DNA of 61,843 bases, counting the filler, from Nitrospinae bacterium RIFCSPLOWO2_12_FULL_45_22 (GTDB lineage Bacteria; 2-12-FULL-45-22), in the NCBI GenBank assembly GCA_001803565.1. It is 6 parts of 6 records of this genome, joined end to end, with 100 filler letters (N's around TTAATTAATTAA, not from the genome) between each part and the next. Parts side by side here need not be neighbours in the genome. Positions count along the whole stretch, not along the records: positions 8,884 to 21,695 come from MHDQ01000054.1; 5 more parts are not named here. The stretch is one strand, 5' to 3'. The translations under genes were made by a program, and so were the position numbers. This document shows, piece after piece, positions 8,784-53,892 of this stretch (positions are counted from its first letter, which is position 1; each line of letters begins with the position of its first letter). A model generated the notes under the pieces. It searched no databases. It had not been told where the DNA came from and was given only the letters and a program-made list of their open reading frames with translations.

Positions 8784-8883
8784 NNNNNNNNNNNNNNNNN
8801 NNNNNNNNNNNNNNNNNNNNNNNNNNNTTAATTAATTAANNNNNNNNNNNNNNNNNNNNNNNNNNNNNNNNNNNNNNNNNNNN
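8784..8883. other. Artificial contig linker
   Basis: N-run with TTAATTAATTAA (stop codons in all six frames). Confidence 0.98.
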
Positions 8884-9093
8884 TCGTGCAGCAGCTAATG
8901 GTAAATATCAGAGAACTGGTCAACAAACCTTAATTTTTGGTATGATGGTTATCCGGACTGAGATCGACATAAACCTTTATTTAGGGAAGTCTTTGTCGCT
9001 GGAAACCTGCTATTTTGCACTCTCAGGACTTTATTATCACTCTCTCCATCTTCCGTTCCGGGCTTAATCTTTGAAGAAACCGAGATTTTTGAT

Positions 9094-9135
9094 TTGACAT
9101 TTTATCTATATAGTTTAGACTGTTACTTAAGTAAC
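9094..9135 (+). promoter_or_regulatory. Sigma70-type promoter and palindromic operator of the TA operon
   Basis: TTGACA (9094) - 16 bp - TAGACT (9116); perfect palindrome GTTACTTAAGTAAC at 9122-9135. Confidence 0.55.
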
Positions 9136-9145
9136 TAAAGCAAGA

Positions 9146-9442
9146 ATGAATCAGGAGGTCAGTATGGAAAAGATATTGAGTATAGAAGAGGCAAGAAAGA
9201 GTCTGGGTCATCTTGTTGATGGGGTCAGGATGAGGGGAGATTTTTATATTATTAGCAAGAAGGGGAAACCTTCAGCAGCTATTGTCCCTATAGAAATAGC
9301 AGAGAGACATCAGGAATCTAAAAAGGCCCTGCTTTTGATGATTGAGGAAGTCCATGAGAAGAATAAAACTAAGAGACCGGAAGAGATAGAGGCCTTGATC
9401 TCGGAGGCCTTAAAGGCTGTTCGGGATTCTAAAAGTCAATGA
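9146..9442 (+). CDS. Phd/YefM family antitoxin
   Basis: SIEEARKSLGHLVD...IISKKGKPSAAIVP; overlaps the PIN gene by 4 bp. Confidence 0.85.
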   Translation: MNQEVSMEKILSIEEARKSLGHLVDGVRMRGDFYIISKKGKPSAAIVPIEIAERHQESKKALLLMIEEVHEKNKTKRPEEIEALISEALKAVRDSKSQ

Positions 9443-9882
9443 TCAAGGTTGTCCTGGATACCAACCAGATTGTTTCGGCCATACTAAACCCAAAAGGGCT
9501 TGGCGATGTGATCCTCATGAGTTCTGGTCTTAAAGGAGATCAAAAATATGAGTTGGTCGTTTCGGAAGAGATTTTAATTGAGATAAAAAGGGTTCTAAAT
9601 TATCCCCGTATAAAAAAGCTCCATGGATGGTCTGAAGAAAGGATTGACCTCTTTTTGAACCTACTTAAGAAACATGCCTATGTCGTTGCCACACCACCTC
9701 CTCACGATAAGGTCGTGCTACCAGACCCGGGAGATGATAAGTTTTTTTACGCAGCCCTCCAGGCCGGAGCGTTGTATATAGTTAGCAGGGATAATCATCT
9801 CTTAAATATAAAGGAGTATAAGGGAGTTAGGGTGTTAAAACCGGAGGTTTTTATTTCTGCAATGACGAATAACGCCCTTTAA
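9439..9882 (+). CDS. PIN-domain toxin
   Basis: KVVLDTNQIVSA, DPGDDKF, YIVSRDNHLL. Confidence 0.88.
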   Translation: MIKVVLDTNQIVSAILNPKGLGDVILMSSGLKGDQKYELVVSEEILIEIKRVLNYPRIKKLHGWSEERIDLFLNLLKKHAYVVATPPPHDKVVLPDPGDDKFFYAALQAGALYIVSRDNHLLNIKEYKGVRVLKPEVFISAMTNNAL

Positions 9883-9963
9883 AGAGTTGCCCGAGAGGCT
9901 CGTATTCCTTTCTGGAGAGTACATAAGATATACAGAGGAGAACTAGTACAAAAGGGCATATCG

Positions 9964-11154
9964 GTGGGTATAAAGACTAAGGTGGTTCATATCATTACCC
10001 GGCTGGATAAGGGAGGGTCGGCTGAAAATACCTTGCTTACCGCCTCTCTCATGGACAAAGAGAGGTATGAGGTATTCCTGATCAGGGGACTTTCACTAGA
10101 ATCAGACATGAGCCCCGCCGAGAGTGATGTCCTGGGGTATGACCTGACTCGGGCAGAAGCCAGGGGTGTCAGGGTATTCACTATCCCTTCATTGGTACGA
10201 CGCTTATCCCCCATAGATGACCTCCGCGCCTTTATTAGTATCTACCGGCTATTGAAAGAGATCAAGCCCAGGATAGTCCATACCCATACCTCCAAGGCCG
10301 GCATATTGGGCCGCTGGGCCGCTTACCTGGCCCGTGTTCCTATAATTATCCATACCCCTCACGGCCATGTCTTTTATGGATACTTTGGCCGGCCCTTGAC
10401 GAGAATCTTTATCTTATTGGAGCGGTACTCCTCCTATATAACCGATAAAATTGTGACCTTGACCGATAAAGAAGGAGAAGAGCATCTACAATCTAAGATC
10501 GCTCCTAAAGCCAAGTTTATTACAATTCATAGTGGAGTATTACTGGAGAGATATTCTCCTTCCAACATAAACCAGATAGATATTAACGGGCTTAAAGCAC
10601 AATTGGGGCTCTCTAATGAGGTAGCCATTGTGGGGACGGTAGGGCGATTGGCCCCGGTGAAAGGGCATGAGTATTTCATTAAGGCAGCCGGGAAGATTTT
10701 GAAAAATTTCCCTGAGACCAGGTTTTTATTGATTGGTGAGGGAGAATTAAGAAGTTATCTGGAAGGTCTGTGTTTAGAGTTAGGTATTTCTCAGCAGGTA
10801 CTTTTTTTGGGCTGGAGAGATGATATTCCTGCCTTACTCGCGCTCATGGATGTCTTTGTCTTGCCTTCTTTGAATGAAGGAATGGGAAGGGTTCTTGTTG
10901 AGGCCATGGCGGTAGGCAAACCTATTGTGGCCTTCCGGGTAGGCGGCATTCCTAACCTTATCCAGGATAGGGAGAATGGGATACTGGTTCTGCCGAAAGA
11001 TATCGAGGGCTTAGCCCGGGCTATCACTACCCTTTTAGCCAGTAGGACTTTAATGGAAGAGCTGAGGGCAAAAGGGACGGCCAAGGCCCCTCTTTACAGT
11101 GCAGAGAATATGGTGCAGAAAATAGAGGCCCTTTATGAAGCTTTACTTAAATAA
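9964..11154 (+). CDS. Glycosyltransferase family 4
   Basis: IVHTHTSKAG, VGRLAPVKG, LPSLNEGMGRVLVEAMA. Confidence 0.92.
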   Translation: MGIKTKVVHIITRLDKGGSAENTLLTASLMDKERYEVFLIRGLSLESDMSPAESDVLGYDLTRAEARGVRVFTIPSLVRRLSPIDDLRAFISIYRLLKEIKPRIVHTHTSKAGILGRWAAYLARVPIIIHTPHGHVFYGYFGRPLTRIFILLERYSSYITDKIVTLTDKEGEEHLQSKIAPKAKFITIHSGVLLERYSPSNINQIDINGLKAQLGLSNEVAIVGTVGRLAPVKGHEYFIKAAGKILKNFPETRFLLIGEGELRSYLEGLCLELGISQQVLFLGWRDDIPALLALMDVFVLPSLNEGMGRVLVEAMAVGKPIVAFRVGGIPNLIQDRENGILVLPKDIEGLARAITTLLASRTLMEELRAKGTAKAPLYSAENMVQKIEALYEALLK

Positions 11155-12601
11155 ACCTTGTTTATATGCCTTTGCTACTTTGTGCCTTTCTGTATCTCTT
11201 TTTCTCAATCCTTCCTTAGCCGCTCCACCACCGGCCTATATTCAGTTGGCGGGTTTGATAGACCTGCGCTCTACCTTTAGTGATGGTGAATTATCCTTAG
11301 AGACCCTGGTAAGGAGGGCAAAAGAGCGTGGCTTTGAAGTAGTAGTGATTAACGATCATGACCGAATGGCTATGGAGTATGGGCTGTTCCCTTTCCGGAA
11401 GATATTGAAAAAACGCGAGGAAAGACCTTCTATTCTTAAGCTGGGTGCGGATAAATACCTGCAGGCGATAAAACAGATTGCCCAGCATTACCCCGATATG
11501 ATCCTTATCCCTGGGGCTGAATCGGCGCCTTTTTACTATTGGACGGGTAGTTATCTTAGGGGAACCCTTACGGCCCATAACTGGGAGAGACACCTGCTCA
11601 TTATTGGTCTGGAAGACCCACAGGATTACCAACATCTCCCTCTCCTTCATAACGGCTTTTCTACGCACTACTTCAGACAGTTGTTGCCTGGGAGTATGAT
11701 ATTTTTGATTCCTCTATGCCTGAGCCCCTTCTTGATACTGAGGAAGGGAAGCTATAGGTTTATGGGTATTACAATCCTGTTGCTCTCTTCACTAATGTTG
11801 ATAGAATCCCATCCCTTCAAGGGCTCCCCCTTTGACCAGTATCACGGAGATCAAGGGATTTCTCCTTATCAAGAGCTGATTGATTATGTTAGGAGCCGTG
11901 GTGGGATGACCTTCTGGAATCATCCGGAGACCAGGTCTGGCATAGCGCGAAAAGGCCCTATCCAGGTAAATACCCCTCCTCATCCTGAGGTATTAATAGA
12001 GAGTAAAGGATATACCGGATTTGCAGTTGTCTATGGAGATAGAATCACGGTCACAGAACCTGGTCATGAGTGGGATAAGCTCCTGATAGACTACTGTCGG
12101 GCTAAGAGAGCCGATCCTCCATGGGGTATATCGTCGGCTGATTTTCATGGGGAAGGCGAGGCTGGGGAGAAACTGGGTAATTTCCCTACTATATTTCTAG
12201 TTAAGAGTAAGACCAAAGAGGAAGTGCTCAGGGCCTTCGAGCAAGGCAGGATGTATGCCTGCCGGGCAGGAGACAATTTCCGCCGGTTCGTATTGGAAGA
12301 TTTCTCGGTCTCTGACCCCACAACGGGCTCCTGGGGCACTCTGGGAGAGACTATCATCTCTAAGAGTAAACCAAGAATAAGGATTAAGATTTTGTCTTCA
12401 GACCAGAGGCGATATGATATTAGGATAAGGATTATTCGTTCTGGCAAACTGATAAATACTTTTTCTGGAACTACACCCCTGGCAGTTAACTTTTCTGATG
12501 ATTATTTTCAGCCTGGGGAGCAGGTCTACTACCGGATAGACATCCCCGGTGTACTGGTCTCCAATCCCGTCTTTGTGAGGTTCAGTCAGGATAGACAATG
12601 A
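11135..12601 (+). CDS. Exported/membrane PHP-like metal-dependent hydrolase
   Basis: Signal peptide; S.FSDG, NDHD, NHPE, SADFH motifs; two internal TM segments. Confidence 0.6.
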   Translation: MKLYLNKPCLYAFATLCLSVSLFLNPSLAAPPPAYIQLAGLIDLRSTFSDGELSLETLVRRAKERGFEVVVINDHDRMAMEYGLFPFRKILKKREERPSILKLGADKYLQAIKQIAQHYPDMILIPGAESAPFYYWTGSYLRGTLTAHNWERHLLIIGLEDPQDYQHLPLLHNGFSTHYFRQLLPGSMIFLIPLCLSPFLILRKGSYRFMGITILLLSSLMLIESHPFKGSPFDQYHGDQGISPYQELIDYVRSRGGMTFWNHPETRSGIARKGPIQVNTPPHPEVLIESKGYTGFAVVYGDRITVTEPGHEWDKLLIDYCRAKRADPPWGISSADFHGEGEAGEKLGNFPTIFLVKSKTKEEVLRAFEQGRMYACRAGDNFRRFVLEDFSVSDPTTGSWGTLGETIISKSKPRIRIKILSSDQRRYDIRIRIIRSGKLINTFSGTTPLAVNFSDDYFQPGEQVYYRIDIPGVLVSNPVFVRFSQDRQ

Positions 12602-12772
12602 TAAGCAGGTATTTACTCTTGTATCTGTCCCCTCCAAGGGCCCTTAGCTCTTCCGTTAAAATTTCCCCAATATAAAGAAGCCCCCCAGGAATAAGCCCCC
12701 CAATTAGCTGGAGTTTCTTTTACCACTAAGCACACAGAGATAACAGAGAAGACTATTCTCTGGCCTCTTTGA

Positions 12773-12850
12773 AGTGTGGGAGTTGCGTAGTGTGGGAGTT
12801 TGCGGACCCCCTTCAACCCTTACTCCCTAACTCTCCCACTCCTTAACTTC
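12773..12850. repeat. Short-unit inverted repeat element
   Basis: GTGTGGGAGTT x2 followed by complementary ACTCCC/CTCCCAC units. Confidence 0.4.
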
Positions 12851-13005
12851 CTGGAGTGGTGAAGGGTTAAAAAAATTATTTTTCTTTTGTCAAATTGTTA
12901 ACTACTTTTGCTGGATGCCCTTAACTTTATAGAAAATTTTCCGAAAAGAATACTAGAAAAAGAAAAAAAGACTTTAGTTGGGTATAAAAAAGGGGAAGCC
13001 GAGCA

Positions 13006-13719
13006 ATGATTGTAGGAATTCACCAACCTCAATATCTACCCTGGTTAGGCTATTTTGACAAAATAGATAGGTCAGATGTTTTTGTTATCCTGGACAATGT
13101 CCAGTATAAAAAAAATGAGTGGCAAAACCGGAACCGGATAAAGACTGCTCAGAGATGGCAATGGATTACCGTACCGGTCTTATATCACTTCCCTCAAAGG
13201 ATAAATGAGGTAAAGGTTGCTAACGGCGAGTCATGGAACAGAAAGCACCTTAATACCCTGCTTACCAATTATCATAAGGCCCATTACTTCCATGAGTACC
13301 TACCTTTTTTTGAAGATGCCTATGCACATACCTGGGAATATCTGGCAGATGTAAATATCCACCTCATAAAATACTTTATAGATGCTATTGGTATCAAGAC
13401 TGAGTTGGTATTGGCCTCTCAATTAAGATTAAGAGAAGACCCCACAGAGAGATTAGTAGATATCTGCAAGGCCGTAGGGGCAGATACTTATCTTTCAGGC
13501 AGAGATGGTGACAAATATATGGACCTGAGCAAGTTTTGGGCCGAGGGTATTGATGTAGTCTTCCAGGGTTTTTACCATCCGGTTTATGACCAGTTGTTTG
13601 GAGAGTTCGAACCGAATATGTCTGTAGTTGACCTTCTCTTTAACTATGGCCCACAAAGTTTAGAGCTTATAAGGAGAGAAAGAGATGAATATCCTGGCTT
13701 TGGGGTCCCATCCCGATGA
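13006..13719 (+). CDS. WbqC family protein
   Basis: HQPQYLPWLGYFDKI, DNVQY, WQNRNRI, YLSG, MSVVDLLFN. Confidence 0.92.
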   Translation: MIVGIHQPQYLPWLGYFDKIDRSDVFVILDNVQYKKNEWQNRNRIKTAQRWQWITVPVLYHFPQRINEVKVANGESWNRKHLNTLLTNYHKAHYFHEYLPFFEDAYAHTWEYLADVNIHLIKYFIDAIGIKTELVLASQLRLREDPTERLVDICKAVGADTYLSGRDGDKYMDLSKFWAEGIDVVFQGFYHPVYDQLFGEFEPNMSVVDLLFNYGPQSLELIRRERDEYPGFGVPSR

Positions 13720-14305
13720 TATTGAATTTGGTTGTGCCGGGACCCTCTTACGGTTCAGCCAAAAGGGTCATGCTGTCTACTTGATGGTCCTTACTTATGG
13801 TGAAATGGGGGGTGAGAAGGAGCAAAGGTGCCAGGAGCAGATGGTTTCATCCAGGATACTTAGAGCCCAGGATGTTTTCTGGGGGGGCTACGCCGATACT
13901 GGGATCAACTTGAATAATGGATTAATTACTCACGTAGAGAGGGTTTTAGCCCGGATAAGACCTGATTTTATTTTTGTTAACTATTTTGAAGATACTCACC
14001 AGGACCATCGCTATCTGGCTCAGGCCACTATCTCGGCAACCCGATACATCAAAAATGTACTCTTCTATGAAGTACCTACTACCCAAAACTTTACCCCTAA
14101 TGTCTTTGTAGAGATAGGGGATGTCCTGGAGCAGAAGATGTCCTCACTAGAGGCCCATACCTCTCAGGTCTTAAAGACAAATATTGAGGATATGTCTATC
14201 AGTGAGATAGCCAGGTCCTGTGCCAACTTTCGTGGGATTCAGGGACGGGTGAAACATGCTGAAGGGTTCGTCTCTCTGCGGTTATTCGTAAATATCCCTC
14301 ACTGA
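13685..14305 (+). CDS. PIG-L/LmbE family deacetylase
   Basis: HPDDIEFG, DTHQDH. Confidence 0.9.
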   Translation: MNILALGSHPDDIEFGCAGTLLRFSQKGHAVYLMVLTYGEMGGEKEQRCQEQMVSSRILRAQDVFWGGYADTGINLNNGLITHVERVLARIRPDFIFVNYFEDTHQDHRYLAQATISATRYIKNVLFYEVPTTQNFTPNVFVEIGDVLEQKMSSLEAHTSQVLKTNIEDMSISEIARSCANFRGIQGRVKHAEGFVSLRLFVNIPH

Positions 14306-14375
14306 AAGAAATAAACTTTTGCTAACTCTTCAGCCACGAAGTGACCCTAAGGAGCACTAAAAGGTAATTATCACT

Positions 14376-15593
14376 ATGATTGCCCACTCTAAGCCTACTT
14401 TGAATGGAGAAGATTTTTCTGCCGTTGAGGAGGTATTACGTTCCGGCAACATTGCTCAAGGCGCCAAAGTAGTTCAATTAGAAGAGAATATGGCTGGATT
14501 TATTGGGGCTAAAGCAGAAGGGGTAGCGGTAAGCTCGGGGACTGCTGCTCTGCACCTGGCCTTAAAGGCCCTCAAGGTAGGAAAGGGGGATGAGGTAATC
14601 TTGCCCAGTTATGTCTGCACTGCCCTATTGAATGCTATAAATTATGAGGGTGCTAAACCAGTCCTGGCAGACATATGTCCTGATTCCTTTAATCTGGACG
14701 TTTCTGCCGCAAAGAAGGCCCTTAGTAAAAATACCAGGGCCATAATCCTACCTCATCTATCTGGCCTGCCCGCCGATATAGAGGAATTTCTTACGCTGGG
14801 TGTCCCACTGATTGAAGATTGTGCCCAGGCCCTGGGGGCCACTTACCGGGGAAGGATGGTGGGAGGTCTTAGTACTTTCTCCATCTTCTCCTTTTATGCT
14901 ACCAAACTCATTACTACCGGCGGAGGGGGGATGCTCTTTTCTGATTCTCAAAAGTTACTGGATGAAGTCCGGGATCTGCGGGAATACGATAATAGGGATG
15001 ACTACCGGGTACGGTATAACTATAAGCTGACCGATCTCCAGGCTGCCTTAGGGCTGTCTCAACTAGAGAGGTTGCCTTCTTTTTTAGCCCGACGGAGAGA
15101 GATTGCTCAACGATACACGGAGGCAATGCAGCACATTCCTGTTGTTTTACCGCGGGCCTATCCTGACCGGGAGCATATTTATTATCGTTATGTTATTAGG
15201 ATAGATGGGATAGAGGCACAGAGGCACAGAGTTACAAAGGTACGGAGCGATAAAGAGGAATTAGGGAGATATCTGGAACTTTTGCATAGAAAGGGGATTG
15301 GGTGTCAGAGGCCGGTCTACCGGCCCCTCCATCATTACCTGGGGCTGAGGGGTTTTCCTATAACCGACAAAGTATGGCAGACTGCCCTCTCCCTTCCTAT
15401 CTACCCTTCCCTCACGGATGATGAACAGGAAAAGATAATTAGTGAAGTAGAAGAAATAATCAACCCCTGTTGTGGTGATCACCACAATCCCAAATTATGC
15501 AAGATTCCCGGCATGTCATTGCGAGGCTTGTCCCGAGCCGAAGTCCCGAGTGAAACAAGGGAGCAAGCGAGGGAACTCGACAAAGCAATCTGA
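14376..15593 (+). CDS. DegT/DnrJ/EryC1/StrS nucleotide-sugar aminotransferase
   Basis: SSGTAALHL, IEDCAQA, SFYATKLITTGGGG, NYKLTDLQAALG, SLPIYP; C-terminus extended by a repeat element. Confidence 0.92.
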   Translation: MIAHSKPTLNGEDFSAVEEVLRSGNIAQGAKVVQLEENMAGFIGAKAEGVAVSSGTAALHLALKALKVGKGDEVILPSYVCTALLNAINYEGAKPVLADICPDSFNLDVSAAKKALSKNTRAIILPHLSGLPADIEEFLTLGVPLIEDCAQALGATYRGRMVGGLSTFSIFSFYATKLITTGGGGMLFSDSQKLLDEVRDLREYDNRDDYRVRYNYKLTDLQAALGLSQLERLPSFLARRREIAQRYTEAMQHIPVVLPRAYPDREHIYYRYVIRIDGIEAQRHRVTKVRSDKEELGRYLELLHRKGIGCQRPVYRPLHHYLGLRGFPITDKVWQTALSLPIYPSLTDDEQEKIISEVEEIINPCCGDHHNPKLCKIPGMSLRGLSRAEVPSETREQARELDKAI

Positions 15594-15630
15594 TCGCTTA
15601 TAGATTGCTTCGCTAAGGCTCGCAATGACC
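15514..15630. repeat. GTCATTGCGAG...CTCGCAATGAC REP-like element with nested insert
   Basis: Terminal arms GTCATTGCGAG / CTCGCAATGAC; inner AAGCAATC / GATTGCTT. Confidence 0.65.
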
Positions 15631-15696
15631 ATTCCCTGGAAGGATGTTTGAAATGAACCTGCATAATTTGGGAGAAGTTTAGAAGGATAATGAATA

Positions 15697-16887
15697 ATGG
15701 AAAAGAGTAAGCCTGGATATTTCTGGAAATCATTTTATATCCTGGTATCCTTGCTGTTGCTTTTGCTGGCAGCTCCACCGGTAAGGGGTTGGTGGTTCCA
15801 GGGGGGAGGTAGATGGTTCTATATCTTCCTATTCTCTTTTTGCCTCTCCTATCTGCTTACCCCTTTATCCCGCTATATTGCAATGAAGCTTGGTATCATG
15901 GACTATCCTGATGCCAGGAAGATACATTCAAAGCCAACCCCACTCCTTGGAGGGATCGCTGTCTATCTGGCTTTTTTGGGTGCTATTCTGGTCAATTATA
16001 TTTTTGACCAGAAGGTAGGGGCCATACTCCTAGGGGGTGCTTTATTGGTAGCTGTCGGGGTTTGGGACGATTATAAGGGGGCTCCTGCCGGGAGCAAGCT
16101 CTTGGTCCAAATTCTTGCTACCCTGTTACTCGTCAAATCCGGGATTGTGCTCAACTTTTTTCCTGCTGCCACAACCGTGGGGGCAATAGGGAACATATTA
16201 TTGACCCTCCTCTGGGTAATAGGGATCACCAATGCCTTCAACTTCTTTGATGGGATGGATGGGCTGGCTACCGGCCTGGGGGCAATTATTGCCGCGTTCC
16301 TGGGGATCATAGCCTTTCAGACCTTTCAACCATTCCTTGGTTGGTTATCCGCCGCTATTGTAGGGAGCTGCCTGGGCTTCTTCCCCTATAATTTTAGGCT
16401 CCGCCAGCCAGCCTCTATTTTTCTGGGGGATACAGGCAGCGTATTCCTGGGTTTTGTGCTGGCTTCCCTGGCGGTTATGGGAGAATGGGCCGACAACGCC
16501 CCCTTTGTCTCGCTAACCAACCCAATACTTATATTTGGGGTGCTGATCTTTGACATGATCTATATCACAGTCTCAAGAATCTATTCTAAAAAGGTAGTCA
16601 ATTTTAGACAATGGATCAGTTATGTGGGTAAAGATCATCTCCATCACCGGCTAAACTCTGTCCTTAAAAACTGCAAGAGCACGGTGATATTTATATTCTT
16701 TTTGAGTACCACATTAGGAATAGGTGCCCTGGCCCTGAGAAATGCCCAGATTGTTGATGCCCTTTTATTGATTTCTCAGGCCGCCATCATACTGGTCCTG
16801 GTGACGGTGCTGGAGAGGGCTGCATCAATTATTACCAGGATTAAGGAATGGCAAAAAGAACCAAAGTCACAAAGATATAGCGGCTGA
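15697..16887 (+). CDS. WecA/MraY-family undecaprenyl-phosphate sugar-1-phosphate transferase
   Basis: RKIHSKPTPLLGG, GVWDD, NAFNFFDGMDGL, FLGDTGS, DHLHHRL. Confidence 0.9.
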   Translation: MEKSKPGYFWKSFYILVSLLLLLLAAPPVRGWWFQGGGRWFYIFLFSFCLSYLLTPLSRYIAMKLGIMDYPDARKIHSKPTPLLGGIAVYLAFLGAILVNYIFDQKVGAILLGGALLVAVGVWDDYKGAPAGSKLLVQILATLLLVKSGIVLNFFPAATTVGAIGNILLTLLWVIGITNAFNFFDGMDGLATGLGAIIAAFLGIIAFQTFQPFLGWLSAAIVGSCLGFFPYNFRLRQPASIFLGDTGSVFLGFVLASLAVMGEWADNAPFVSLTNPILIFGVLIFDMIYITVSRIYSKKVVNFRQWISYVGKDHLHHRLNSVLKNCKSTVIFIFFLSTTLGIGALALRNAQIVDALLLISQAAIILVLVTVLERAASIITRIKEWQKEPKSQRYSG

Positions 16888-16977
16888 TGTGAATTTCAAG
16901 CAACCATTGATCCCTACTACAATCGGGGTAACGATTGATTGCCGGATCAGGTCTGCAAGAGAGGGGGTTAATGCCTA

Positions 16978-17268
16978 ATGGATTTTCTGGAAAAGGCCTA
17001 TAAGAAAAGTGATTCTATTGTCTTTAGAAAGATAGCTGACGAGGTTATTTTAGTTCCGATAAGGCAAAATGTTGGTGATCTGGAAAGTATTTATACATTA
17101 AATGGGACCGCTACGCGTATCTGGGAACTGATGGATGGGAAAATAAAAGTTCGAGAGATAAAGGAGAAGATAGTTGAGGAATTTGAAGTAGCGCCTGAAG
17201 AAGCAGGAAAAGATTTAATGGAGTATTTACAGCAATTAGAGAAAGTATCGGCGATAATCGAAGGGTGA
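16978..17268 (+). CDS. PqqD family RiPP recognition element (RRE)
   Basis: FRKIADEVILVP...IYTLNGTATRIWELMDG...IVEEFEV...DLMEYLQQL. Confidence 0.9.
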   Translation: MDFLEKAYKKSDSIVFRKIADEVILVPIRQNVGDLESIYTLNGTATRIWELMDGKIKVREIKEKIVEEFEVAPEEAGKDLMEYLQQLEKVSAIIEG

Positions 17269-17272
17269 AGCT

Positions 17273-18376
17273 ATGGAATGTCCCCATATACCAGCTATTA
17301 GCTATACTGAGTTTGATGAATTGTTGTATAAGCAGGTCGTAGCAAAGAGAATCCCAATTAATGGATCATTTGAGCTTACCTTCCGCTGTAATCTGCGCTG
17401 TGCTCATTGCTATTGCAACTTGTCCCTGAATGATCAAGATGCCATCAACAAGGAACTATCTACTGAAGAGATATTTGATATCTTTGATCAGATGGCAGAT
17501 GCTGGGTGTCTGTGGCTGTTGCTAACCGGGGGGGAACCGTTGGTGCGGAAGGATTTTTTAGAAATCTATACTTACGCCAAGAAAAAAGGCTTCATTATCA
17601 CCCTATTTACCAATGGGACACTCATTACTCCGGAGATTGCCGATTACCTGGCTGAATGGCCACCATTTGCGGTGGAGATAACCTTATATGGTGCTACTAA
17701 AGAGACCTATGAGAAAGTAACTGGAGTCGCTGGTTCATTTAAGCGCTGTAAAAGAGGCATTGACTTACTATTAGAGCGAAAAATTCCTTTGGGGTTGAAG
17801 ACCATGATGATGACCTTAAATCGAGATGAGCTCTGGCAAATAAAAGAATATGCTGAGGGATTAGGCGTGAAGTTTCGTTTTGATCCCATATTCAACCCCC
17901 GGCTGGATGGCTCTAAAACCCCTTATAATTTCAGGCTATCACCGGAAGAGGTGGTAAAATTGGATTTAGCTGATGAAAAAAGAACGAAAGAATGGCAGAG
18001 GTTATGTGATAAGTTTTCCGGGTCTCCTTCATCTGACGATCTTTACCTCTGTGGCGCTGGAATTTCCGCATTCCATATCAATCCCTACGGGAAAATGAGC
18101 GTATGTGAGATGTCTCGTTTTCAGAATTATGACTTGCAGCGTGGTTCCTTTGAAGAGGGTTGGTATCAATCTATCCCTGAGTTTTTGACGCTAAAAGCTA
18201 AGGATGATTACCCATGCGCTCAGTGCGACTTGAGCGACCTATGTGGTCAATGCCCGGGTTGGTCATGGTTGGAGGCGGGCAATGCCGAAACCCCGGTTGA
18301 ATATCTCTGCCAGGTAGCCCATCTGCGGGCAGAGGCATTTAGCCCAAGGAAACCCTCAAAAAATGAAGGGAGGTAA
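17273..18376 (+). CDS. Radical SAM/SPASM peptide maturase
   Basis: CNLRCAHC, TGGEP, CGAG, C-terminal CAQCDLSDLCGQCPG...C. Confidence 0.92.
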   Translation: MECPHIPAISYTEFDELLYKQVVAKRIPINGSFELTFRCNLRCAHCYCNLSLNDQDAINKELSTEEIFDIFDQMADAGCLWLLLTGGEPLVRKDFLEIYTYAKKKGFIITLFTNGTLITPEIADYLAEWPPFAVEITLYGATKETYEKVTGVAGSFKRCKRGIDLLLERKIPLGLKTMMMTLNRDELWQIKEYAEGLGVKFRFDPIFNPRLDGSKTPYNFRLSPEEVVKLDLADEKRTKEWQRLCDKFSGSPSSDDLYLCGAGISAFHINPYGKMSVCEMSRFQNYDLQRGSFEEGWYQSIPEFLTLKAKDDYPCAQCDLSDLCGQCPGWSWLEAGNAETPVEYLCQVAHLRAEAFSPRKPSKNEGR

Positions 18377-18378
18377 AA

Positions 18379-18552
18379 ATGGAGAGCAGAGAAAAGCCCC
18401 GGAAATGCTATATAAAACCTCAAATAAATCAAGTCATGTTGAAGATCGAGGAAGCGGTCCTGGCAGGTTGTAAGACAGGCGCAGGCGCGCCAGGGGTGAC
18501 AAATAAGAATTGTGATCATGCTCAATGCAAGAGAAGTGTTTATGGTTCATAG
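18379..18552 (+). CDS. Putative RiPP precursor peptide, 57 aa (not in the ORF track)
   Basis: MESREKPRKCYIKPQINQVMLKIEEAVLAGCKTGAGAPGVTNKNCDHAQCKRSVYGS; strong RBS GGAGGT upstream; YxxP leader motif; three core Cys; C-terminal Ser. Confidence 0.85.
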   Translation: MESREKPRKCYIKPQINQVMLKIEEAVLAGCKTGAGAPGVTNKNCDHAQCKRSVYGS

Positions 18553-18578
18553 TCTAGTAAAGCGGTTCCTTATTAAAA

Positions 18579-18654
18579 TGTCATATCGACCGAAGGGAGA
18601 TATCTTTCTAACCCACTGTTGCAAATAAGATTTCTCGCTTCGCTCGAAATGACA
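18579..18654. repeat. TGTCAT...ATGACA REP-like hairpin
   Basis: Arms TGTCATATCGA / TCGAAATGACA with inner GAAGGGAGATATCT and AGATTTCTCGCTTCG. Confidence 0.6.
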
Positions 18655-18717
18655 TCATTGTAACGGTATTTTGTCCCCGTCAGGCATTTTCAGAAGAAAC
18701 TTTAGGGGGTTGATTGC

Positions 18718-19599
18718 GTGGTGGTAAATGAAGAGGGACTAAGGGAAGTGACGGTAGGTATCGCTGGTATCGGTATATCTTTTCTCTTCGGTCAAAACCT
18801 TTTTGGATGTGGACTTAAAGATATCAAGGATGATTTTGTTACAGACAATAGCGCTGAAGTAAAGCTTCGGGTGCATCATGGCGGTATTCCCGGAAAGAGA
18901 CCTGAAAAAAAGATATTCGATTCCGGCAGCACCTGGTCACTCTACTGCAATGGGGGAAAATACGTCTTGCAGGATTGTTCCTTTGAACCTGATTTACTTC
19001 CTGAAAGAATTGTGGTCTTAGAATCTGATTTCAAATCTGGTGACATATACATGAGGAATGGTGTGTTCAATCAAAACCTTCTCCCCGATCCGTTAGGATA
19101 TCCCTTGAATCAGGTTTTGATGATAATGCTCCTATCCCGTTCCAGAGGGATGTTGCTGCATGCGTGCGGTATTGATGATAATGGTAATGGGTATCTTTTT
19201 TTAGGTAATTCAACCCATGGAAAGTCAACCATCTCCAGATTGTGGTTTGAGAACCAGGCGACAGTTCTTAATGATGATAGAATTATCGTAAGGGAAAAAG
19301 ATGAAGAGCTTTGGATGTATGGGACACCATGGCATGGGGCTTTTAAGGAGGTGTCGCCTAAAGGACTACCGATCCGCAAGGTATTCTTCTTGGGTCATGG
19401 AGAAAGGAATTCTGCGGTTCCCAAAAAGTATGCAGAGGCAGCTTCAATGTTTTTAACCCGGTGTTTTCCTCCATTCTGGGATAAAAAAGGGATGGAGTAT
19501 ACTGTCGGTTTATCCCACCGCATAATAAGTAAGATACCCTGTTATGAACTAAATTTTGTGCCAGATAAAGAAATTATCAGTTTCGTAAGGAATATATAA
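18718..19599 (+). CDS. HPr-kinase-like P-loop protein (RiPP kinase / ScmC-like)
   Basis: LHACGI, GNSTHGKST Walker A, LNDDR, YGTPWHG. Confidence 0.78.
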   Translation: MVVNEEGLREVTVGIAGIGISFLFGQNLFGCGLKDIKDDFVTDNSAEVKLRVHHGGIPGKRPEKKIFDSGSTWSLYCNGGKYVLQDCSFEPDLLPERIVVLESDFKSGDIYMRNGVFNQNLLPDPLGYPLNQVLMIMLLSRSRGMLLHACGIDDNGNGYLFLGNSTHGKSTISRLWFENQATVLNDDRIIVREKDEELWMYGTPWHGAFKEVSPKGLPIRKVFFLGHGERNSAVPKKYAEAASMFLTRCFPPFWDKKGMEYTVGLSHRIISKIPCYELNFVPDKEIISFVRNI

Positions 19600-19603
19600 A
19601 TAA

Positions 19604-20110
19604 GTGAGAAAGAGTGTTAATTTAGGAATAACTGACTTATTAGAATTAAGCCAGGCTATCCTTGAAAAAGGCAACTCAATCCGCTTTCAAGCCAAAGGCT
19701 GGAGTATGCGCCCTTTTATTCAAGATGGAGATTTTATAATCGTGAGCCCGGTTCAAAATTCCTCTATTAAAAAAGGAGATGTGGTATTTTATTCCACTGA
19801 TGAAAATAAGGCTATTGTTCATCGCATTATTAAAAAATATAAAAACAATGGCACAACGACATTTCTCATTAAAGGGGATGCCTCTTTTGGCCTCCCTGAA
19901 AGGGTTGATATACGGAACATATTGGGCAAGGTGACCGCAATTGAAAGAAAGGGGTGGAAAAAGAGATTAGATACAAAGTTTTATCGGGTAATTGGTTTGC
20001 TCTTTGCGGGAATATCTCCCTTCAGCCGCTGGACTTATCTAATCGGGAGCCGAGTTAAGCACAGCGGCCGCAGACTGCTGGGCTTTCGTCAGATATCAAT
20101 ACCTCAATAA
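19604..20110 (+). CDS. S24/S26 family peptidase
   Basis: GWSMRPFI (catalytic Ser), GDVVFY, IVHRII, IKGD. Confidence 0.85.
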   Translation: MRKSVNLGITDLLELSQAILEKGNSIRFQAKGWSMRPFIQDGDFIIVSPVQNSSIKKGDVVFYSTDENKAIVHRIIKKYKNNGTTTFLIKGDASFGLPERVDIRNILGKVTAIERKGWKKRLDTKFYRVIGLLFAGISPFSRWTYLIGSRVKHSGRRLLGFRQISIPQ

Positions 20111-20118
20111 AGGGAAAT

Positions 20119-20210
20119 GGGGTCAGGTCTTGACATTTGACATAAGGGGTTTAGTAAAATTTAGGACGATATCATTCGTAAGTTTATGTCAAATGTCAAG
20201 ACCTGACCCC
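20119..20210. repeat. Perfect 27-bp inverted repeat (REP-like)
   Basis: GGGGTCAGGTCTTGACATTTGACATAA / TTATGTCAAATGTCAAGACCTGACCCC. Confidence 0.8.
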
Positions 20211-20233
20211 TCTACGCCAGTAGGAGAGTATAA

Positions 20234-21568
20234 TTGACCTGGACAAACGAGGATCGCTTAATGCTTTATTGTTGCCAAGCTAATATTGGCAACAGCGATA
20301 CAGATGAACTAATTGATACACAAAGAAACGGAATAGATTGGGGGTATTTTCTAAAAAAGGCGAGAACAGAAGGCATCTCGCCTCTAATTTATCACCGGCT
20401 TCAAAAAGTTGTTATAAGTAAGAATAATATCCCCAAGGATGTGATAGAAGAGCTAAAAAAAGATTATTATCTGAGTGCCACTAAAAATACCTTAATTTTT
20501 AAGGAGTTAGGAAAGCTCCTTGAGGCATGTAATAAAGTCGGGCTTCAGGTAATAGTCCTTAAAGGGGCGGCATTGGCGGAAACCGTATATGAGAATCTAG
20601 CTTTGCGGCCAATGTCAGATATAGACCTGCTGGTAAGAAAAGAAGACCTGTTGTCCCTTGATAAACAGTTAAAGACGCTGGGCTATTGGCCATCTGATAG
20701 ATCAGTTGACGATATTGACTTATATTCTCCATCATATCTGACCACCCTTGATTATAGAAATTCTTCCAATAATTCTCCTTCTTTTCATATCCACTGGCAT
20801 TTTGTCAATTCCACCATTCCCAATGACTCTTATATCAAGGATATTCCAATTGAAAATATATGGCGGGATGCTGAAAAAACCAGGATTGCCCAGGTAGAAA
20901 CCCAGGTGATGGTCCCTCACCACCTTATCATACACCTCTCAGAACATGCCTTAAGAGTTACGCACTCTCTGAGCAAATTTTGCTTCTTTTGTGATATCAA
21001 TGAAGCGATCACTTTTTACCAGGAAAGATTGGATTGGGATAAGCTGCTTAGAGAGAGCGATAAGTTCAACCTTAGTAGAATGGTCTATTTAAGCCTATAT
21101 TTTGCTGGTAAATTCCTGGCAACGAGGATACCCCATGATGTTTTATTAAAGCTAAGACCAAAACGGTTTACCCTAGGCGAAAAGCTCTTTATAAATTCTA
21201 TATCAAACAATGACCGCTCTCCGGGCTTAAGCTACCTAGTCCATCTGTCCATGAACAAAGGGTTATTTAGGAAGATGAGATTTGTCTGGAGGACATTATT
21301 CCCTCCGCGTCAAATCATAGCCCAAAGAAGCTATATCCCTCAATCAAGAGTCAGTCCTATGAATTATCTTCGGCGGATTAAGGAGGTTTTTTCGCACTTT
21401 TTTAAGATGGTAATTATTTTAGGGAAGAACTTCCGCAGGAAACCATGGAAAACTTGTAACAGTTCATGTTCTTTGTCATTTCGAGCACAGCGAGAAATCT
21501 TTCCGAGACCGGAGGTAAATAAAGATTCCTCCCTTCGGTCGGAAACATTTATCTTCGATAGGGGCTGA
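20234..21568 (+). CDS. Nucleotidyltransferase family protein (NTP_transf_5 type)
   Basis: VLKGAALA, RPMSDIDLLV, HIHW, HLSEH, CDI; last ~37 aa are encoded by an inserted repeat element. Confidence 0.85.
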   Translation: MTWTNEDRLMLYCCQANIGNSDTDELIDTQRNGIDWGYFLKKARTEGISPLIYHRLQKVVISKNNIPKDVIEELKKDYYLSATKNTLIFKELGKLLEACNKVGLQVIVLKGAALAETVYENLALRPMSDIDLLVRKEDLLSLDKQLKTLGYWPSDRSVDDIDLYSPSYLTTLDYRNSSNNSPSFHIHWHFVNSTIPNDSYIKDIPIENIWRDAEKTRIAQVETQVMVPHHLIIHLSEHALRVTHSLSKFCFFCDINEAITFYQERLDWDKLLRESDKFNLSRMVYLSLYFAGKFLATRIPHDVLLKLRPKRFTLGEKLFINSISNNDRSPGLSYLVHLSMNKGLFRKMRFVWRTLFPPRQIIAQRSYIPQSRVSPMNYLRRIKEVFSHFFKMVIILGKNFRRKPWKTCNSSCSLSFRAQREIFPRPEVNKDSSLRSETFIFDRG

Positions 21569-21576
21569 ACTGTTAC
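21456..21576. mobile_element. MITE-like element (near-identical copy at 44495-44617)
   Basis: Perfect TIR GTAACAGTTCA / TGAACTGTTAC; interior almost identical to the copy on contig 5. Confidence 0.8.
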
Positions 21577-21695
21577 AGAAACTTTTGCCCATGTCTGGTC
21601 CATGATTCATTATTCTTTGGGATCCAATTGTTAAAAAGAAATAAAGAATTTACGGCTATTCTCTCTACCATAACTTATATCCTTAGCATGGTACT

Positions 21696-21795
21696 NNNNN
21701 NNNNNNNNNNNNNNNNNNNNNNNNNNNNNNNNNNNNNNNTTAATTAATTAANNNNNNNNNNNNNNNNNNNNNNNNNNNNNNNNNNNNNNNNNNNN
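21696..21795. other. Artificial contig linker
   Basis: N-run with TTAATTAATTAA. Confidence 0.98.
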
Positions 21796-22157
21796 CTTTG
21801 CTTGGCAACGTTAATTTAAGGCCAGAAGCCCTTTCCGGGGAGATAGCCCGTACTTATCAGACTATATTGGTTCTGGCCAACGGTTTTATTTTTACTGCAA
21901 TGATCTGGGGAGCGATCCTGGCCAACCTGATTGATGGTCAGTTCCGCAAAGCGGCGGGCTTTGCCCTGGCTGCGGCGGCTTGTTCTTTATTCGGTTTGAT
22001 CCATTCGCCTATGCCTAATGCTGAGTTGATCTTACCCTGGGCAGCACCTTCTTTTGTCCCGATAGAGTTTGCTATGGCTTATTCCCTCATGGCCCTGATA
22101 TTTTTAGCTATCGGAGGAACCATCCAGCCACAAAGATGGGTTAATCGTAAGGAGTGA
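21796..22157 (+). CDS. C-terminal fragment of an NCS2-like membrane permease
   Basis: LANGFIFTAMIWGA...LID...SLFGLIHSP; truncated by the contig start. Confidence 0.65.
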
Positions 22158-30773: not shown

Positions 30774-30873
30774 NNNNNNNNNNNNNNNNNNNNNNNNNNN
30801 NNNNNNNNNNNNNNNNNTTAATTAATTAANNNNNNNNNNNNNNNNNNNNNNNNNNNNNNNNNNNNNNNNNNNN
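30774..30873. other. Artificial contig linker
   Basis: N-run with TTAATTAATTAA. Confidence 0.98.
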
Positions 30874-44190: not shown

Positions 44191-44290
44191 NNNNNNNNNN
44201 NNNNNNNNNNNNNNNNNNNNNNNNNNNNNNNNNNTTAATTAATTAANNNNNNNNNNNNNNNNNNNNNNNNNNNNNNNNNNNNNNNNNNNN
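44191..44290. other. Artificial contig linker
   Basis: N-run with TTAATTAATTAA. Confidence 0.98.
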
Positions 44291-53792: not shown

Positions 53793-53892
53793 NNNNNNNN
53801 NNNNNNNNNNNNNNNNNNNNNNNNNNNNNNNNNNNNTTAATTAATTAANNNNNNNNNNNNNNNNNNNNNNNNNNNNNNNNNNNNNNNNNNNN
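53793..53892. other. Artificial contig linker
   Basis: N-run with TTAATTAATTAA. Confidence 0.98.

Follow-up and report, generated by a model that had tools for sequence, protein, structure and literature searches.

A candidate precursor peptide of an uncharacterized ribosomal peptide family, encoded beside a PqqD–radical SAM gene pair in a Nitrospinae bacterium

The window analyzed here is a 61,843-nt stretch of DNA, made up of separate contigs of the Nitrospinae bacterium RIFCSPLOWO2_12_FULL_45_22. [quoted passage not shown] Domain assignments come from a Pfam and NCBIfam scan of the 13 ORFs at window positions 9964-22157. By position in the window, the features are as follows.

9964..16887, + strand: sugar genes of like orientation, upstream of the cassette on its contig (Pfam/NCBIfam: GT4, PHP-like, WbqC, PIG-L deacetylase, DegT aminotransferase, WecA-like phosphotransferase)
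16978..17268, + strand: discrete PqqD-type RRE, 96 aa (PF05402, 59.2 bits; cutoff 23.4)
17273..18376, + strand: rSAM/SPASM peptide maturase, 367 aa (PF04055, 89 bits)
18366..18373, + strand: Shine-Dalgarno sequence AAGGGAGG, read directly and overlapping the end of the rSAM gene
18379..18552, + strand: precursor peptide gene, 57 aa, conserved from residue 1 to about residue 32
18554..18673, no strand assigned: copy of an interspersed hairpin repeat, ~120 nt, between the precursor and kinase genes
18718..19599, + strand: HprK-like P-loop peptide kinase, 293 aa, putative GTG start (invariant motifs, AF2 fold)
19604..20110, + strand: archaeal-type SpI-like leader peptidase, 168 aa (TIGR02228, 65.3 bits; cutoff 51.85; also PF00717, PF10502)
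20234..21568, + strand: PF14907 nucleotidyltransferase of LppN/PsmN type (157.7 bits; cutoff 31.2)

The nucleotidyltransferase is the last gene on its contig, which ends 127 nt farther on (at 21695), before any exporter gene; its last ~37 codons enter an interspersed repeat copy (21455-21576). The window joins unconnected contigs end to end, so the ORF at 21798-22157 and everything else past 21695 were excluded from the cassette. Neither promoter-like sites (13 versus 12.1 expected) nor terminator-like sites (7 versus 5.8 expected) are in excess around the cassette.

The precursor ORF runs from an ATG at 18379-18381 to a TAG at 18550-18552, and its translation is identical over all 57 residues to the peptide quoted in the initial annotation. 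That annotation had placed the start 2 bp after the rSAM stop, behind a strong ribosome-binding site. Both statements hold: a 2-nt gap (18377-18378) separates the TAA at 18374-18376 from the ATG, and GGAGG occupies 18369-18373, 5 nt upstream of it. Comparable GGAG-type sites precede the homologues in L001–L005, and the ATG is the only plausible start because the open frame spans just 61 codons. The leader contains Y11-I-K-P14, followed by E24-E25-A26-V27-L28-A29-G30-C31-K32; the core is variable and Gly/Ser/Thr/Ala-rich, with C31, C45, and C50 and a C-terminal G56-S57. A fourth Cys, C10, absent from the initial annotation, lies in the leader immediately before Y11, and this position varies across the family (P28, T12, S9, and others).

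An ORF this short, from a family with no match in either the Pfam or the NCBIfam library, might be a random open frame lying between genes. Searches through the neighboring enzyme argue otherwise: six of seven loci located via the rSAM enzyme and not via the peptide (L001–L006) have a homologous small ORF after the rSAM gene, with position and motifs kept, and the seventh, L007, has two related WxxP-type peptides. A homologue search with the precursor gave 51 proteins at E ≤ 1 among 91 candidates, and a profile search with the precursor family gave 878 cluster representatives (clustering at 50% identity) at E ≤ 1e-3, 41 of them at E ≤ 1e-10. The protein atlas returned only clusters labeled "hypothetical protein." Codon comparisons, confined to two loci (L001 and L003), counted 9 synonymous versus 19 changing codons and 6 versus 32. 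The homologues beside rSAM genes, the 878 profile matches, the strong Shine-Dalgarno sequence, and the family-wide conservation of Cys and terminal residues together rule out a chance frame, whose probability we put close to nil. The ORF is almost certainly a real gene translated as a precursor, a judgment that draws on conservation. One candidate match, P0081 (536 aa, ten 24-residue repeats like EEPVLQACK...C...C), was set aside because it lacks the YxxP motif; it is probably a chance or low-complexity match.

Conservation was quantified in a family sample of 197 hits shorter than 130 aa, taken from the best 150 of the 878 representatives plus the 51 earlier matches; the sample leans toward matches because it was drawn in this way and because GS also closes the query profile. 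Within this sample (best 150 of 878 plus 51), [YWF]xxP and CK are both present in 195 of 197 hits; among these 195, the Tyr-to-Cys distance is 20 in 191, exactly three Cys occur from CK onward in 186, and the terminal residue is Ser in 174 and Thr in 16, hence Ser/Thr in 190. The third Cys lies 5–7 residues from the end in 178 of the 186 three-Cys members. A C-terminal Ser/Thr is also found in all 18 WxxP-type relatives. Random variation of the Cys positions and terminal Ser, named in the initial annotation as the pattern that would count against it, is thus not what the homologues display.

The remaining conservation is concentrated in the leader and at its junction with the core. Across 192 members, the YxxP-x-hydrophobic motif first recognized in the initial annotation recurs with Y at 98%, P at 100%, and I/V/L at Y+5 in 97%; further near-invariant positions are K at Y+2 (91%), V at Y+8 (90%), L at Y+10 (96%), and E at Y+14 (95%). 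The junction is similarly constrained (A 88%, V 92%, L 95%, C 100%, K 100%). No core position is conserved in the family alignment except the Cys, K32, G56, and S57; core aromatic content is low (Trp 0.5%, Tyr 1.5%), and residue −2 is often hydrophobic (Y16, L14, I11). Members carry source labels that include Desulfobacterota-type MAGs, Aminicenantes, WOR-3, Aerophobetes, and Acidobacteriota. The precursor family is widespread, very large, and hitherto unstudied.

Gene neighborhoods were viewed at 25 loci, set against the 878 family representatives. PqqD, rSAM, peptide, HprK, and S26 genes occur all together in L001–L005; L006 starts inside its rSAM gene, so any PqqD gene there is out of sight. 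The nucleotidyltransferase lies further downstream in L001, L002, L005, and L006. Searches with the peptide alone led to 17 loci (G002 left out), of which 15 have an adjacent rSAM homologue, 13 an HprK, and 11 an S26 gene, with the missing neighbors mostly at contig ends. The family thus adjoins PqqD and rSAM genes, as had been supposed for the window peptide. The source genome itself carries three such cassettes (the others being C258 and C138), each combining an rSAM gene with a Cys-bearing peptide and a YxKP leader; the peptide of the third, C138, ends in Gly and not Ser. On balance, we favor the reading that this ORF is the gene for the precursor (A) in an uncharacterized ribosomal peptide family, matured by the six-gene cassette on one contig.

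The discrete PqqD protein supplies the first step of the proposed maturation. A profile of 16 homologues matches the lasso-peptide RRE TbiB1 (5v1u) at 4.6e-11, LppB (9x8z_B) at 5.4e-8, and PbaB1 (9x90_B) at 1.4e-7, the two chain identities following PMC13381572; lasso PqqD models in the curated libraries match it below their cutoffs. By sequence comparison, the protein is most like the recognition elements of lasso peptides and of linear polyphosphorylated peptides (LPPs). Its D79 is invariant and, in our own mapping of the register, falls opposite LppB D70, the residue that forms a hydrogen bond with the Tyr of the leader (PMC13381572). Given this homology and the conserved pocket Asp, the PqqD protein would very likely bind the Y11xxP14-I16 motif, as lasso B1 proteins and LppB do.

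LPPs of Bacillota, with the gene set LppA/B/K/S/N/D described by Popov et al., Nat Commun 2026 (PMC13381572), are the closest published system to this cassette. Shared features are a discrete PF05402 RRE (LppB chain match 5.4e-8), an archaeal-type SpI leader peptidase (65.3 bits versus 51.85), an HprK-like kinase with a PEPCK/HPr-kinase fold (below curated cutoffs here), a PF14907 NTP transferase (157.7 bits versus 31.2), an acidic residue at −2 relative to the bond in the LPP cleavage register, and a frequent setting in polysaccharide loci, which for LPPs are capsule loci. The differences are as follows. An rSAM/SPASM gene lies between RRE and precursor here and in 15 of 17 peptide-located loci, whereas the words radical, SPASM, rSAM, and thioether have 0 occurrences in the LPP main text. 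The leader continues as xxVxLxxEEAVLxxCK here and as VLxHQxIxFETxxS in LPPs (consensus YxxPxVLxHQxIxFETxxS), so that YxxPx[IVL] and the Y+14 Glu are all that the two have in common; no Cys appears in the published logo of the LPP leader. The present family is marked by three Cys and a C-terminal Ser/Thr, all invariant, and has no conserved Ser at core position 3, the residue phosphorylated in LPPs (PMC13381572). LPPs are linear products with no cross-linking or cyclizing enzyme in their core set, which here includes an rSAM/SPASM gene. Two relatives (L001, L042) carry ABC-2 exporters where LPP clusters carry an MsbA-like one, and the hosts belong to anaerobic, sediment, and groundwater lineages as against Bacillota. 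The supplementary tables of the LPP report list non-Bacillota SpI homologues with co-localized RREs, and among the entries of one domain header are Radical_SAM, TIGR04545, WbqC, PHP, DegT, and TIGR02380; loci of this kind were therefore already in that dataset, though undiscussed in the text. In a literature collection that takes in few subscription journals, we found no paper on a peptide cassette combining rSAM, SpI-like peptidase, and HprK-like kinase.

The LPP comparison also bears on where the leader would be removed. LppS, a peptidase of the same type, cuts the LPP leader only together with its RRE, and the LPP leader has its Tyr at −16 and its FET triplet at −3 to −1 of the cut (PMC13381572). 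The peptidase encoded here contains GWS34M, H73, and D92; a comparison by eye, without alignment, suggests that S34, H73, and D92 are the counterparts of the catalytic S29, H68, and D93 of LppS. Carried over to the precursor, the LPP register puts Y11+15 at A26 and hence the bond between A26 and V27, behind a 95%-conserved E and an 88%-conserved A, with Y+14 being E in both systems. By analogy with LppS, the SpI-like peptidase would likely remove the leader with assistance from the RRE. The cut would most plausibly fall after E24-E25-A26, giving a 31-residue product that begins VLAGCK, although our confidence in that exact bond stops a little short of even. Against the proposed cut, Glu at −3 would be unusual among the sites of type I signal peptidases. 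By the same analogy, cleavage after EEA26 appears more likely than cleavage at VLA/G, the site favored in the initial annotation. The product would probably be exported by an ABC-2 transporter of the kind present in relatives.

The rSAM enzyme has a C39xxxC43xxC46 motif and SPASM cysteines at 260, 278, 315, 318, 324, 327, and 346, none of which varies among 24 homologues, and its AF2 model (pLDDT 87.6) is best matched by the folds of SkfB, PqqE, SuiB, CteB, and anSME. The thioether synthase SkfB ranks first by both sequence (2e-15) and fold (1.4e-13); the PapB and StsB models score under cutoff. From these comparisons we judge it an even call that the RRE-recruited enzyme would modify the core at the three invariant Cys, with thioether bridges—sulfur-to-carbon links of the sacti- or ranthipeptide type—as the likeliest product. 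Thioether formation by C31, C45, and C50, as first proposed, is plausible; the Asn, Asp, and Thr residues offered as acceptors find no counterpart in an alignment whose only conserved core residues are the Cys, K32, G56, and S57. The initial interpretation therefore stands in part: the precursor beside PqqD and rSAM, the YxxP leader, and the fit of Ser57 are retained, and its acceptors are not.

A real precursor could also be modified by an rSAM enzyme that makes a C–C or C–O cross-link, epimerizes, or oxidizes Cys to formylglycine, the three Cys then forming disulfides, binding metal, or serving for recognition. We regard this as unlikely. Fold comparison fails to tell thioether synthases apart from enzymes of other rSAM chemistries, whose E-values are close to theirs: thioether synthases, the C–C cross-linkers PqqE and SuiB, the epimerase EpeE, and the Cys oxidase anSME all fall within about four orders of magnitude, and PqqE, SuiB, anSME, TigE, and EpeE score near SkfB and CteB. 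The best full-length NCBIfam match is moreover a mycofactocin maturase (TIGR03962, 115.9 bits, positions 10-310 of 339), and the core alignment offers no conserved acceptor. Against these points, Cys are the sole invariant side chains of an otherwise free core, rSAM-bearing related cassettes always have Cys-bearing peptides, SkfB leads in both searches, and the scarcity of Trp and Tyr in the core leaves little for known C–C chemistries.

The mycofactocin match bears equally on whether the peptide is secreted at all. Since the cassette pairs PqqD with an rSAM that has MftC as its top full-length match among curated models, the peptide might be a scaffold from whose C-terminal end a small cofactor or redox molecule is cut, as for mycofactocin or PQQ; the V-Y of the window peptide two residues before its end, and the common hydrophobic residue at −2, would suit this. 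The MftC score nevertheless lies far below its cutoff of 265 bits, Tyr occupies −2 in just 16%, and the family ends x-G-S with no mycofactocin-type GVY. The core varies in length and sequence, as is typical of secreted products, and ABC-2 exporters adjoin the cassette in L001 and L042. We consider the cofactor route very improbable.

The kinase reaches no curated family cutoff in the Pfam/NCBIfam scan, its NCBIfam matches being weak (ScmC 31.4 bits, HprK_rel_B 29.4 bits), and its assignment comes from motifs and fold. H148, G163xSxxGKST171 (including K169), and D186-D187-R188 are invariant in 16 homologues, and the AF2 model (pLDDT 87.6) matches PEP carboxykinases and the HPr kinase/phosphatase 1knx at 1.6e-6. 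H148, K169, D186, and D187 correspond to the His-Lys-Asp-Asp motif of lasso precursor kinases (PMC9266682) and to the D158/D159 metal site of PsmK (PMC6993621). HprK-like kinases of paeninodin-type lasso precursors act on an extremely conserved C-terminal Ser (PMC9266682), and Ser57, the target first proposed, agrees with this rule and with the terminal Ser/Thr of 190 of the 195 sampled members (best 150 of 878 plus 51) and of all 18 WxxP-type relatives. By analogy with those lasso precursors, the kinase would, with fair likelihood, phosphorylate the side chain of Ser57, possibly several times.

This placement leans on lasso peptides and not on the closest cassette, because in LPPs, the sole SpI/HprK system characterized so far, the phosphate sits on core Ser3; the Gly end of the C138 peptide also counts against it. 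The kinase could instead act near the new core N terminus, as LppK does on LPP Ser3, leaving the C-terminal Gly-Ser for recognition by, for example, the rSAM enzyme, the nucleotidyltransferase, or an exporter; LPP C-termini are highly variable (PMC13381572). At Y+18, the register of LPP Ser3, the family shows A35, Q24, T14, G8, and S7, with no conserved hydroxyl, whereas the terminal Ser/Thr is retained in nearly all sampled members and matches the rule for kinase-bearing lasso clusters. An N-terminal site therefore seems rather doubtful, and Ser57 remains our preferred target. In lasso precursors, PsmN-type nucleotidyltransferases add hexose to the phosphate (PMC9266682 and PMC6993621). Tentatively, the PF14907 enzyme would decorate the Ser57 phosphate in a comparable way.

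The sugar genes upstream may be functionally linked to the cassette. WecA and GT4 homologues flank distantly related cassettes (L046–L048), a DegT homologue flanks L047, Wza-like and Wzz-like genes occur near L042 and L005, and ABC-2 permease–ATPase pairs adjoin the cassette in L001 and L042. Because sugar genes of the same orientation immediately precede the cassette, because of these flanking genes and ABC-2 pairs among relatives, and because LPP clusters lie in capsule loci, one can picture a thioether-bridged peptide whose phospho-Ser C terminus anchors or primes a glycan, making it a cell-surface polymer component and not a free antimicrobial. The WecA-like, GT4, DegT, PIG-L, and WbqC genes would build the glycan, the PF14907 enzyme would couple it, and ABC-2 transporters, a type usual in polysaccharide export, would carry the conjugate out. 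The examined flanks of L001, L003, and L041 lack sugar genes, which speaks against this arrangement, and we hold both the conjugate and this division of labor to be speculative and improbable.

Three other known systems share parts of the cassette. Phosphorylated lasso peptides (paeninodin and pseudomycoidin; PMC9266682 and PMC6993621) likewise have a YxxP/WxxP leader, a discrete B1 RRE, an HprK-like kinase with the His-Lys-Asp-Asp motif, a conserved C-terminal Ser, and a PsmN-type nucleotidyltransferase. In the present cassette, an rSAM/SPASM enzyme and a serine peptidase replace the cyclase and the B2 cysteine protease; neither a lasso cyclase (asparagine-synthetase-like) nor a B2 cysteine protease was found by Pfam or NCBIfam among the 13 ORFs of 9964-22157. 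With sactipeptides and ranthipeptides (SkfB, CteB, AlbA, PapB) the cassette shares an rSAM/SPASM maturase, here with CxxxCxxC (C39, C43, C46) and seven invariant C-terminal Cys, and a Cys-containing Gly/Ser/Thr/Ala-rich core. The RRE is a separate protein here and an N-terminal maturase domain there; kinase, SpI-like peptidase, and nucleotidyltransferase are additions, and the thioether, which in those classes joins a Cys sulfur to an acceptor's alpha, beta, or gamma carbon, is a prediction here. SynChlorMet (SCM; NCBIfam TIGR04248-04251, ScmC/D/E/F) is a set of similar kind, in which rSAM/SPASM enzymes accompany a PqqD relative and an HprK-like protein. The present cassette was judged not to belong to it, since every model scores far below cutoff (ScmC 31.4 versus 125 bits, ScmD 29.7 versus 100, ScmE 91.1 versus 400, ScmF 81.7 versus 400), and WxxP-type relatives with two rSAMs likewise fall below the SCM cutoffs. 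The same literature collection yielded no SynChlorMet paper.

If the favored reading is right, LPP-type machinery (RRE, SpI-like peptidase, HprK-like kinase, PF14907) extends beyond Bacillota and beyond linear products, and is combined with an rSAM/SPASM maturase in a very large family (878 representatives). The family offers a likely new scaffold, thioether-bridged and phosphorylated, and a compact, testable system in which three or four unrelated enzymes would each receive the precursor from one YxxP-binding RRE. Because one genome holds three cassettes, each with a YxKP leader, it also provides a natural test of leader discrimination. A model built from the family alignment would annotate hundreds of missed genes.

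The hairpin repeat between the precursor and kinase genes (18554..18673) has 48 blastn matches in 35 contigs of the source genome. Its RNA fold reaches −38.5 kcal/mol (z −3.64), with 2 of 200 shuffles folding equally well. The copy may be incidental, or it may be an RNA stem-loop that acts after the precursor.

Comparison with homologs identifies the 57-aa ORF at 18379-18552 (+) as a real precursor gene. It lies on the second of the six MAG contigs that make up the window (8884-21695, corresponding to contig G000:C54 of the source genome; 12,812 bases). The contigs are joined by N spacers and do not form continuous genome, so nothing past 21695 is linked to the cassette, and the ORF at 21798-22157, for example, is no neighbor.

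8784-8883, 21696-21795, 30774-30873, 44191-44290 and 53793-53892: N-spacer joins (paired N runs; adjacency across them is not real)
16978-17268, +: PqqD-family protein (PF05402, 59.2 bits), the RiPP recognition element (RRE)
17273-18376, +: radical SAM/SPASM enzyme, on the same strand as the peptide
18379-18552, +: precursor ORF (ATG start, 57 codons, TAG stop)
18718-19599, +: HprK-related protein, 293 aa (weak HprK-related matches)
19604-20110, +: archaeal-type signal peptidase I-like protein (TIGR02228, 65.3 against an NCBIfam cutoff of 51.85)
20234-21568, +: PF14907 nucleotidyltransferase (Pfam/NCBIfam scan)

The radical SAM stop codon (TAA, 18374-18376) is separated from the precursor ATG by 2 nt, and GGAGG at 18369-18373 lies 5 nt upstream of that ATG, in agreement with the initial annotation, which had described a 57-aa ORF 2 nt after this stop and behind a strong ribosome-binding site. 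The start is not in doubt, because the open frame spans only 61 codons. The peptide carries Y11-x-x-P14, E24-E-A-V-L-A-G-C31-K32, C45, C50, and S57, together with a further leader cysteine, C10, which was absent from the initial annotation and is unconserved in the family. An opposite-strand ORF of 92 codons with a TTG start (18247-18525, −) overlaps the end of the radical SAM gene and most of the precursor; because the plus-strand genes are conserved, it is most likely spurious.

A public-genome search with the neighboring radical SAM protein returned seven loci (L001–L007). A peptide homolog adjoins the enzyme in six of them (L001–L006; tblastn). The homolog starts no more than a few bases from the enzyme stop in L001–L005 and ~1 kb downstream in L006, where ~1 kb is inserted between the two genes (L006/L040:575-1590); the seventh locus encodes two related peptides with WxxP replacing YxxP. 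Searching with the peptide sequence alone yielded 2 proteins, and a seven-sequence profile yielded 51 at E ≤ 1 among 91 candidates. Against 1.84 billion representatives, the same profile matched 878 proteins at E ≤ 1e-3, 41 of these at E ≤ 1e-10; names among the matches listed from the 51-protein search are solely "hypothetical," "unnamed," or "uncharacterized." No Pfam or NCBIfam model matched the peptide, and a protein atlas look-up returned unnamed clusters only. The family is large, unannotated and, across the literature searched, undescribed.

Constraints on the peptide were summarized from 198 stored matches, which are the best-scoring part of the matches; 197 are shorter than 130 aa, and 195 of those contain both [YWF]xxP and CK. 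The distance from the leader Tyr to the CK Cys is exactly 20 in 191/195, and exactly three Cys occur from CK onward in 186/195. With a query profile that itself ends in GS, Ser or Thr is the last residue in 190/195 (Ser 174, Thr 16), and the penultimate residue is Gly in 151; both the cysteine spacing and the terminal Ser singled out in the initial annotation are thus conserved. Among 192 nonredundant sequences, the conserved block reads [RK]-K-x-Y-x-K-P-x-[IVL]-x-x-V-x-L-x-x-E-E-A-V-L-x-x-C-K. Past this block the core sequence varies freely, and Gly (17.8%), Ser, Thr, and Ala are abundant; conservation there is limited to two further Cys (C2–C3 offset mostly 5-8; C3 to end 5-7 residues in 178/186), a hydrophobic residue at −2, and the terminal G-S.

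Gene order, protein families, invariant residues, and these family-wide peptide constraints are direct observations. The order RRE, radical SAM enzyme, peptide, kinase, peptidase is kept in L001–L005; L006 begins inside the radical SAM gene, and the nucleotidyltransferase lies downstream in L001, L002, L005, and L006. A separate peptide-based search covered a sample of 401 genomes from the phylum to which a second genome (G002) belongs; 18 of them matched. Across the 17 loci examined besides G002's own, neighbors include a radical SAM homolog in 15/17, the kinase in 13/17, and the peptidase in 11/17; most missing neighbors fall at contig ends, and in L053 the peptide stands alone within ±8 kb.

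The radical SAM enzyme carries C39xxxC43xxC46 and a full SPASM Cys set, invariant in 24 homologs. Its first match by sequence is SkfB (2e-15), and its predicted model (pLDDT 87.6) resembles the peptide maturases SkfB, PqqE, SuiB, CteB, and anSME, a fold search that does not discriminate which radical SAM chemistry applies. The kinase model (pLDDT 87.6) has a PEP-carboxykinase/HPr-kinase fold, with H148, the P-loop G163-x-S-x-x-G-K-S-T171, and D186-D187-R188 invariant in 16 homologs. The peptidase carries GWS34M, H73, and D92.

The closest published system is that of the linear polyphosphorylated peptides (LPP) of Bacillota, defined by Popov et al. (Nat Commun 2026; PMC13381572). Its genes encode LppS (SpI-like peptidase), LppB (discrete RRE), LppK (HprK-like kinase), LppN (NTP transferase), and a pump resembling MsbA; the precursor motif is YxxPxVLxHQxIxFETxxS, LppS cuts after T-1 solely when LppB is present, and core Ser3 is phosphorylated several times (PMC13381572). 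A profile built from homologs of the window RRE matched the RRE TbiB1 (4.6e-11) and the crystal structures of LppB with leader (9x8z_B, 5.4e-8) and of the RRE PbaB1 with leader (9x90_B, 1.4e-7), both from PMC13381572. We mapped residues by comparing the printed alignment with the residues named in that paper (LppB chain number = paper number + 18); under this mapping, LppB D70, the hydrogen-bonding partner of the leader Tyr (PMC13381572), aligns with invariant D79 of the window RRE, and LppB N33 with invariant N42. A term search of the main text of PMC13381572 found no mention of radical SAM, SPASM, or thioether. Its supplementary tables contain non-Bacillota SpI homologs with a colocalized RRE, and a domain header in them includes Radical_SAM, TIGR04545, WbqC, PHP, DegT, and TIGR02380, a set of families that recurs upstream of the window cassette; from these we infer that loci of this kind sat in the LPP data, undescribed in the main text. 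By its genes, the cassette appears to couple a radical SAM maturase with leader processing and phosphorylation of the LPP/lasso type.

In the proposed pathway, the RRE would bind the leader at Y11xxP14-I16, and the radical SAM/SPASM enzyme would then modify the three invariant Cys. Thioether bridges rank as the likeliest outcome: no core side chain other than Cys is invariant, the nearest solved relative of the enzyme is a thioether synthase, and the published leader logo of the LPP relatives, which lack a radical SAM enzyme, contains no Cys (PMC13381572). The kinase would phosphorylate terminal Ser57. Here the family appears to follow the lasso rule rather than the LPP rule: kinase-bearing lasso clusters have an "extremely conserved" C-terminal Ser at which mono- to polyphosphorylation takes place (PMC9266682, PMC6993621), whereas this family has no conserved hydroxyl residue where LPP Ser3 would fall in register. 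The PF14907 enzyme may place a sugar on the phosphate, as does PsmN, the hexose-adding nucleotidyltransferase of the pseudomycoidin-type lasso system (PMC6993621). The SpI-like peptidase would remove the leader. For this step we favor, by analogy with LPP, predicted cleavage between A26 and V27 (E24-E25-A26/V27) over the VLA/G site of the initial annotation, because the LPP Tyr lies at −16, Y11+15 is A26, and Glu at Y+14 is common to both (95% in the window family). ABC-2 permease and ATPase pairs adjoin the nucleotidyltransferase in L001 and L042 and suggest export of the product; the window contig ends before any such position downstream of the nucleotidyltransferase.

Sister cassettes (L007, L045–L054) carry two or three radical SAM genes and encode peptides with a W-x-K-P leader, an identical EEAVLxxCK junction, at least three Cys, and a terminal Ser/Thr (18/18 peptides). 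In a tree of 24 radical SAM proteins, rooted at midpoint only, 11 YxxP-type proteins separate from 13 WxxP-type proteins with support 100/100, the latter forming two paralogous clades. Neither group reached the cutoffs of the SynChlorMet cassette models (ScmC/D/E/F). L001 (8292-9320) encodes the peptidase as a fusion with a GNAT acetyltransferase, and L042 (5947-7137) as a fusion with a SAM methyltransferase, which hints that the newly exposed N-terminus is modified in these relatives. In the WxxP-type locus L047:7042-9909, two precursor genes flank the genes for a LynF/TruF/PatF-like peptide prenyltransferase (119.2 bits, below the cutoff of 140) and for a member of the geranylgeranyl-reductase family; the sequence match suggests prenylation in this branch. 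The source genome carries two cassettes besides that of the window:

G000:C258:434-3358 (L055): peptide (2 Cys, ending G-S), kinase, peptidase, RRE, and radical SAM enzyme (57% identical to that of the window), then a sigma-54 response regulator
G000:C138:2343-5833 (L056): more distant, with a YxKP-leader peptide and Gly at the end

Only 2 genomes of this phylum are in the searched collection. The closest cassettes occur in MAGs labeled Desulfobacterales, Deltaproteobacteria, and Aerophobetes, and metagenomes from groundwater, soil, and sediment (16 studies) contain near-identical DNA.

Co-oriented genes upstream on the contig encode GT4, PHP-like, WbqC, PIG-L, DegT, and WecA-like proteins. 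WecA and GT4 homologs flank L046–L048, with a DegT homolog also at L047; genes resembling those for Wza and Wzz lie near L042 and L005, respectively, and sugar genes are absent from the fetched flanks of L001, L003, and L041. Sugar-gene neighbors thus occur in 6/11 loci examined for them, a suggestive tie, not proof, in line with the frequent location of LPP genes inside capsule loci (PMC13381572). Preceding the sugar genes, at the contig start, is a gene pair (9146-9879) for a Phd/YefM antitoxin and a PIN-domain protein. An interspersed repeat of ~120 nt that folds as a long hairpin (−38.5 kcal/mol, z −3.6) occurs twice on the contig:

18554-18673: copy 1, directly after the precursor gene
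21455-21576: copy 2, which supplies the nucleotidyltransferase ORF with its final ~37 codons

Across the source genome, the two copies give 48 and 41 blastn matches, in 35 and 33 contigs.
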